A DNA stretch of 64,000 nucleotides from Escherichia coli (GTDB lineage Bacteria; Pseudomonadota; Gammaproteobacteria; Enterobacterales; Enterobacteriaceae): NCBI RefSeq assembly GCF_013122565.1, contig NZ_CP053258.1, one strand, 5' to 3'. The notes under the pieces were generated by a model. The model did not search any database. It had not been told where the DNA came from and was given only the letters and a program-made list of their open reading frames with translations. How positions within the stretch are numbered: position 1 is the first letter of the stretch; every line of letters begins with the position of its first letter. This document shows positions 6,104 through 6,272 of this stretch, one piece after another. The position numbers and the translations under genes were made by a program.

Positions 6104-6119
6104 ACGCAAACGTGTGCGT
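6104..6119. promoter_or_regulatory. PurR operator (PUR box) upstream of purC
   Basis: ACGCAAACGTGTGCGT, near-perfect match to the 16-bp PurR palindrome ACGCAAACGTTTGCGT. Confidence 0.7.
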
Positions 6120-6162
6120 CGGCAGGAAAACGCGATTTTAGCGGTAATTCGCACGAAATTTG

Positions 6163-6222
6163 TTTGTCGGACGTAGTTCGGATAAGGCGTTCACGCCGCA
6201 TCCGACAAAACATCCGGCACAC
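6163..6222. repeat. REP (repetitive extragenic palindromic) unit in bamC-purC spacer
   Basis: CGGATAAGGCG...CGCCGCATCCG palindromic unit signature. Confidence 0.7.
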
Positions 6223-6272
6223 CAGACAGCAAGAGATTTTAAAACGTTAATTCACACCCAGGAGTGATAAAG

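Follow-up and report, generated by a model that had tools for sequence, protein, structure and literature searches.

The window analysed here is a stretch of 64 kb of Escherichia coli DNA, in which the genes dapA, bamC/nlpB, purC, ypfJ and tmcA follow one another on the plus strand. The encoded PurC protein shows 100% identity to PurC of E. coli and E. albertii. The positions of the features between bamC and the end of purC are listed in Table 1. The bamC–purC intergenic region has a length of 212 nt, as in K-12. When 251 nt around this region were used as a query, matches with 97–99.6% identity were obtained in 5425 of the 5426 complete genomes of E. coli, between annotated bamC and purC. The spacer is missing from the one other complete genome, and it was also found in one record classed as a plasmid.

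Compared with MG1655, the leader of the window differs by two single bases, namely G at 6121 (T in K-12) and G at 6233 (A in K-12). The G at 6233 is private to the window, and A is found at this position in K-12, in four other E. coli alleles, in strain SCPM-O-B-8794 and in E. albertii. The segment 6208–6258 was matched at 100% by none of the 5426 complete genomes, the best match being 98%.

The locus is the canonical and much-studied control region of E. coli purC. The original purC sequence and a primer extension are reportedly due to Tiedeman (1990), and the work of He (1990) and Meng (1990) is, like Tiedeman's, said to belong to the earlier literature on the K-12 purC promoter (purCp) and its PurR operator. 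The operator, the transcription start site (TSS) and PurR binding are already known, and the repetitive extragenic palindrome (REP) in the leader is an ordinary feature. The duplication that flanks the insertion and the invariant block next to the ribosome-binding site are minor new details.

Table 1. Positions of genes and control features at the purC locus in the window
Feature	Position	Strand	Remarks or basis
dapA	4113-5009	+	
bamC (nlpB) CDS, gene upstream of purC	5023-6060	+	ORF list; bamC annotation in matching E. coli genomes
bamC intrinsic terminator, 9-bp hairpin (6067-6088) and T6 run	6067-6093	+	terminator scan, mapped 3' ends
purC promoter, extended -10 TGATATGAT (TGaTATGAT)	6095-6103	+	position relative to mapped TSS; conservation
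PurR operator (PUR box) ACGCAAACGTGTGCGT	6104-6119	. (read on +)	spans -6..+10 of purCp
purC TSS (+1)	6110	+	Kim 2012 and Yan 2018 both map here; base 7 of the box
Leader copy 1, homologous to the leader that ancestrally followed the operator	6120-6154	+	aligns to Citrobacter leader CGGCAGAAAAACGCAATATTTATCGTTAATTCACAC
Escherichia-specific insert, 68 nt, carries the REP	6155-6222	+	absent from other genera sampled
TTTGTCGGA, 9-nt inverted copy of TCCGACAAA (6201-6209)	6163-6171	+	stem competing with the REP hairpin
Single Y-type REP (GTAG and imperfect palindrome)	6173-6207	+	+64..+98 of purC mRNA
Leader copy 2, second ancestral-leader copy beside the ribosome-binding site	6223-6257	+	direct repeat; invariant in Escherichia
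Shine-Dalgarno (SD) AGGAG, 8 nt upstream of ATG	6260-6264	+	sequence
purC CDS, 237 aa	6273-6986 (ATG 6273, stop 6986)	+	ORF list; annotation; protein identity
Perfect 10-bp hairpin after purC, CTTGCCGTGC / GCACGGCAAG, no T run	7003-7027	+	sequence

The PurR operator and the purC start site

The PUR box fits the palindromic consensus ACGCAAACGTTTGCGT at 15 of 16 positions, with the central CG at 6111–6112. It is the sole match in the 64 kb at one mismatch or fewer, and no match appeared in 100 shuffles. It is still the sole match in the window at three or fewer mismatches, where 0.73 matches are expected by chance, so that only the stringent test at one mismatch or fewer is informative. The 16-mer is identical to the PUR box of K-12 purC. 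ChIP-chip data identified this 16-mer, given as its reverse complement ACGCACACGTTTGCGT, as the PurR site of purC, and showed that PurR occupies it in vivo with a higher enrichment in the presence of adenine (Cho 2011). The same study states that purC is repressed in a purR-dependent manner, for which its reference list credits Meng 1990. The site combines a consensus palindrome, a position over the start site of the promoter and in vivo occupancy, the last of these taken from the K-12 literature. The near-perfect box that the preliminary description had placed at 6104..6119 is therefore a unique site in the window, and its distance of about 155 nt from the purC ATG agrees with the 153 nt counted from the box end (169 nt from the box start).

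The purC start lies at 6110, inside the PUR box, according to two independent TSS maps. In the first, one purC TSS was listed at 2595803 of NC_000913.2, with a 5' UTR of 163 nt, the ATG at 2595640 and an upstream sequence ending in ...CTGATATGATACGCAAA (Kim 2012). In the second, SMRT-Cappable-seq delimited a purC unit from 2597781 to 2596861 of NC_000913.3 (Yan 2018); since the ATG lies at 2597618 in that record, its TSS also corresponds to window position 6110. Because the start lies inside the box, the operator spans -6 to +10, and the REP is transcribed within the 163-nt purC 5' UTR. Neither map puts the start downstream of the REP.

The hexamer TATGAT at 6098–6103 occupies -12 to -7 relative to this start, and the TG at 6095–6096 makes it an extended -10. 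There is no recognisable -35, and that position falls within the hairpin of the bamC terminator. A generic sigma-70 promoter scan gave no match at 6095–6103 because of this poor -35; the promoter was assigned from the mapped TSS.

The bamC terminator consists of a GC-rich hairpin followed by a U run, with RNA 3' ends mapped to 6092–6094. Term-seq placed the 'primary' bamC 3' end at K-12 positions 2597798/9, which are window positions 6093/6092 at the end of the T6 run (Adams 2021), and SMRT-Cappable-seq placed the end of the dapA–bamC transcript at 2597797, which is 6094 (Yan 2018). The hairpin and its T run are kept across genera in the alignment. The dapA–bamC transcript stops at this terminator, and the extended -10 directly after it starts purC at 6110. 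PurR with hypoxanthine or guanine would then sit on the start site and shut out RNA polymerase. Steric exclusion at the start site is the simplest mechanism of purC repression, as judged from the position of the box and from general knowledge of the pur regulon and its LacI-family repressor PurR, and it would not differ from that in related genera.

At the other end of the unit, the published 3' end of the purC transcript (2596861, window 7030) lies 3 nt past the hairpin that follows purC, and it was classed as a 'novel TTS' (Yan 2018). Full-length capped reads of the same data run from 6110 across the leader to 7030. SMRT-Cappable-seq also recorded isoforms that begin at the bamC or dapA promoters, pass the terminator of bamC and extend over the PurR operator to purC and ypfJ. 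Through such read-through isoforms, part of purC expression may escape PurR or be road-blocked by it. A 'terminator-like' scan match on the minus strand (6228 to 6211) faces no converging gene and was taken as chance. The small ORFs of the leader were also rejected as genes; they start upstream of the TSS or have a TTG start without an SD.

The REP element and the Escherichia-specific insertion

REP hairpins occur in hundreds in E. coli. The element in the purC leader has the characters of a Y-type REP, being a GTAG-led family palindrome of about 35 nt that is extragenic, multi-copy and able to form a stable stem-loop. Its GTAG lies at 6173–6176, and the arms of its inverted repeat, TCGGATAAGGCGT and ACGCCGCATCCGA, lie at 6178–6190 and 6193–6205. 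The 24-nt core GGATAAGGCGTTCACGCCGCATCC has identical copies at 35584 and 45708, where the chance expectation is 0, and a copy that is one base off at 10865. The GTAG-led 5' half belongs to a set of nine members in the window, compared with 0.15 expected. In the complete E. coli genomes, megablast of the locus query gave a median of six places per genome, and the extra places matched the 35-nt REP part, whereas the non-REP flanks of the insert occur once per genome.

When the purC element was aligned to canonical REP copies, homology covered 6173 to 6207. The preliminary description had drawn the REP at about 6163..6222; a REP is indeed present between the operator and the ATG, but the REP proper is confined to 6173–6207, and the wider span takes in the flanking stems. 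The base of the purC REP stem is altered from GCCGGA...TCCGGC to TTCGGA...TCCGAC, by which the second pair changes from C-G to T-A. The 35-mer folds at -15.4 kcal/mol (z -4.4), compared with -21 kcal/mol for the canonical copy at 35577. With its 76-nt context the fold reaches -27.7 kcal/mol (z -4.6). The fold of the whole purC leader is unexceptional (z -1.4), and the SD is free in the predicted structure.

The locus holds one full REP, and its only inverted partner is the 9-nt fragment at 6163–6171, so that it does not form a BIME. The stem partner TTTGTCGGA is not conserved; E. albertii has TTTGCCAGA at this place, and strain SCPM differs as well. The 'outer stem' GUCGGAC / AUCCGGCAC of the minimum-free-energy fold and the alternative 9-bp stem were considered as conserved structures and rejected, as E. 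albertii and SCPM do not conserve them. Against the naRNA4 model (Rfam RF02564), the element scored 30.9 bits, below the gathering score of 59.5. naRNA4 is a REP-derived family, and the sub-threshold match reflects shared REP sequence only. The MG1655 record has no REP feature at purC, nor has it one at the classic malE–malF control REP; the missing annotation at purC is therefore uninformative.

Further REP copies were seen in the window at 10830–10888, 22147–22182, 35548–35607, 45708–45738, 57278–57294 and 58352–58368. Apparent pairs or arrays are found at 10830/10865, 22147/22166 and 35548/35577, and the homology of the copy at 58352 ends after the 5' arm.

The purC leader was compared among PurC-anchored loci from 80 species. 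The 16-mer of the PUR box was identical in 25 of the 80. From the box start to the ATG, 16 loci (Enterobacter, Citrobacter, Pseudocitrobacter, Phytobacter, Leclercia, Cedecea, Pluralibacter and related genomes) have 65–68 nt, compared with 168–169 nt in E. coli and E. albertii. The alignment across genera showed that the terminator, CTGATATGAT, the box and the segment GTTAATTCACAC–CCAGGAGT–ATG are conserved, and about 100 extra nt are present in Escherichia only. CTGATATGAT is kept in Escherichia, Citrobacter, Pseudocitrobacter, RIT691 and one of the two Pluralibacter genomes, and GGAGT, at the SD, is invariant in 18 of the 18 aligned genera.

The Escherichia insertion totals about 103 nt and is made up of the 68-nt REP-bearing insert between two copies of the ancestral leader. 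The direct repeat CGGTAATTCGCAC (6142–6154) / CGTTAATTCACAC (6245–6257) has a spacing of 103 nt, and it was found in three Escherichia lineages with 85–92% identity and a spacing of 102–103 nt. With gaps, the repeat extends to GATTTTA...CAC, and in the least-diverged allele it covers the entire post-operator leader of about 35 nt. The score of this gapped extension was equalled or exceeded in only 0–5 of 5000 shuffles. Each of the two copies can be aligned with the leader of Citrobacter.

Of the 5426 complete E. coli genomes, 5425 carry the insertion, and E. albertii carries it too. The 68-nt insert was not found in the sampled Enterobacter, Citrobacter, Pseudocitrobacter, Phytobacter, Cedecea, Pluralibacter and other genomes. 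Its age is bounded only by E. albertii, which has it, and by Citrobacter and the others, which do not, in a sample to which Salmonella, Shigella and E. fergusonii did not belong.

The operator lies on the promoter and TSS exactly as in the genera without the insert, and the geometry of repression is therefore untouched. The arrangement of operator and promoter is ancestral and undisturbed, and what the insertion changed is only the length of the 5' UTR. The preliminary description called the operator 'separated' from the purC start by the REP. The REP does lie between the operator and the start codon, but the operator still sits on its own promoter and start site, and there is no regulatory oddity.

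Leader expansions have also arisen independently in Kluyvera, Serratia, Providencia and Erwinia, each with its own extra sequence. From sequence comparison, such common insertions would fit a permissive site. For example, Serratia plymuthica (L065, about 2290–2500) has about 125 extra leader nt relative to S. grimesii (L037), with flanking TTGAAGC direct repeats. The S. plymuthica insert is strongly structured, and its whole-leader fold is -58.6 kcal/mol.

In the Enterobacter, Phytobacter, Pseudescherichia and Cedecea purC loci, no TATGAT was seen by eye immediately 5' of the box. These loci (L004, L005, L014, L025, L026 and L029; about 2420–2460) have the -10-like hexamers CATAAT, TAGAAT, GATAAT or CACAAT a few bases 3' of the box. 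Judged by eye, this suggests that the purC promoter may have shifted around a fixed operator, from the box over +1 to the box in the spacer. In two Enterobacter sp. loci (L021 and L064), the PUR box reads ACGCACACGTTTGCGT, with the asymmetric position in the opposite half-site compared with E. coli.

Constraint on the leader and the possible role of the REP

In the comparison with E. albertii, divergence at four-fold sites is 19% in purC and 37% in the 3' end of bamC. The leader from 6110 to 6217 has 17 differences in 108 nt, which is about the four-fold-site rate of purC, and leader copy 1 has 7 differences in 35 nt. From these counts we infer no clear constraint on leader copy 1 or on the REP with its flanks, all of which evolve at a near-neutral rate. 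Between 6218 and 6272, there are no fixed differences, and the only change is the private A>G of the window at 6233. At 19% divergence, the probability of one or fewer changes in 55 nt is about 1e-4, as calculated from the difference counts. This indicates that the ribosome-proximal leader copy is constrained. It presumably retains the original role in translation initiation, while the distal copy, the REP and the REP flanks would drift.

The 55 nt of 6218–6272 are without a fixed difference among E. coli, a divergent 'E. coli' lineage and E. albertii. The block holds the CA-rich and A/U-rich sequence CACACCAGACAGCAAAAGATTTTAAAAC, and it could be a translation enhancer, a binding site for an sRNA or protein, or a rut-like tract.

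Despite substitutions, the REP hairpin keeps -14.4 to -15.5 kcal/mol in four of four Escherichia alleles. The substitutions include C-G to T-A (relative to canonical REPs) and G-U-compatible changes. The kept hairpin energy would fit weak selection on structure, but it is weak evidence at best, because other processes also homogenise REPs.

We believe, with good confidence, that the purC leader combines a start site blocked by PurR with an old REP-bearing insertion, and that the REP is a tolerated passenger. Another view is that the hairpin of the REP acts post-transcriptionally, as a functional element of the leader, so that purC regulation in Escherichia would differ from that in other enterics. 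It could tune the mRNA half-life, act together with the downstream C-rich, G-poor tract as a Rho-dependent attenuator, or affect ribosome access. The REP is indeed transcribed (+64..+98), its stable hairpin is kept in every Escherichia allele examined, and the insertion is fixed in E. coli. REP/BIME arrays elsewhere have been reported to stabilise upstream RNA and attenuate downstream transcription (REP325 preprint; review), but these effects come from arrays in 3' UTRs or between cistrons and not from a lone REP in a 5' UTR. The strong constraint on the 55 nt that follow the insert core could also be cited in favour, but most of this block corresponds to the ancestral region of ribosome binding, kept in Citrobacter too, and not to the REP. 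The REP sequence itself diverges near-neutrally, and the alternative stems that flank it are unconserved. The predicted fold leaves the SD unsequestered, and the z of -1.4 for the leader as a whole also speaks against this view. Among the listed Term-seq 3' ends (Adams 2021), none falls inside the purC leader and none is given for purC, which argues against a functional REP, although an absent peak is compatible with modest attenuation or an altered half-life. We consider a functional REP unlikely. A stricter version, which we hold to be still less probable, is that the leader is a 'filled site' recording the acquisition of REP DNA with a target duplication of 21–35 nt, and that the REP and the C-rich tract form a lineage-specific post-transcriptional module, acting for example by Rho-dependent attenuation or an altered half-life. 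The filled site would be read as a footprint of acquisition because duplications this long are not expected from a Y1/HUH mechanism of the RAYT type.

The REP might instead serve the dapA–bamC transcript, where RNA that reads through the bamC terminator would meet it as a second-line terminator or 3' stabiliser. Such RNA is seen in the SMRT-Cappable-seq isoforms bamC–purC and dapA–bamC–purC–ypfJ, and REPs classically shield upstream RNA from 3' exonucleases (review background). However, the dominant bamC 3' end at 6092–6094 lies 80 nt 5' of the REP, Term-seq reports no 3' end at about 6208–6220, and the same terminator is present in genera without the REP, which makes this role very improbable. 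A further possibility is a true purC promoter on the 3' side of the REP, with a PUR box that acts from a distance or is non-functional; no support for it was found. Both independent maps place the start at 6110 without a second purC TSS, a promoter scan of 6120–6272 finds no promoter-like site, and the box is occupied by PurR in vivo. We regard this possibility as practically negligible.

The REP of the purC leader is therefore best read as a passenger tolerated in the 5' UTR, whose influence on purC expression would be modest at most. An effect on purC mRNA stability, which the preliminary description had raised, may exist but is unsupported.

Comparison with known systems

The results confirm the textbook regulation of purC, in which PurR represses the gene from an operator that overlies the start, and they add little to it. 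The purC leader nevertheless offers a well-documented REP inside a 5' UTR, with both the TSS and the upstream terminator mapped. The published work on REP function dealt almost exclusively with 3' UTR and intercistronic elements, and two recent REP papers are silent on purC and on REPs in 5' UTRs. This makes the purC leader a convenient natural test case. The comparison of empty and filled sites also shows how a promoter-proximal insertion can be tolerated, the ribosome-proximal copy keeping the constrained sequence and the distal copy decaying.

The K-12 purCp has the same 16-bp box, extended -10, TSS position and 212-nt intergenic length as the window. PUR boxes at other pur promoters mostly overlap the -35 or -10, and purB and purR have downstream sites. 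The operators of purF, purMN, purL, purHD, purEK, purT and others are likewise imperfect palindromes of 16 bp with a central CG, and they are also bound by the LacI-family PurR with hypoxanthine or guanine (sites and logo in Cho 2011). The purC box covers the start (-6..+10), and the leader after it, at 163 nt, is unusually long.

The purC leaders of Citrobacter, Enterobacter, Pseudocitrobacter and others represent the 'empty site'. They have the terminator, the PUR box and the GTTAATTCACAC–CCAGGAGT ribosome-binding region as in Escherichia, but they are only about 60 nt long and are without the REP or the duplication.

The purC REP belongs to the same family as the REP/BIME elements of E. coli, such as those of malE–malF and REP325 (yjdM–yjdN), and has GTAG followed by a GCCGGATAAGGCGTTCACGCCGCATCCGGC-like palindrome. 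Both are extragenic and multi-copy. In contrast to a BIME, the purC REP is a single unit that forms no pair or array, and the base of its stem is mutated (TTCGGA...TCCGAC). The studied REPs lie in 3' UTRs or between cistrons, whereas the purC REP lies in a 5' UTR, past a mapped TSS and an upstream terminator.
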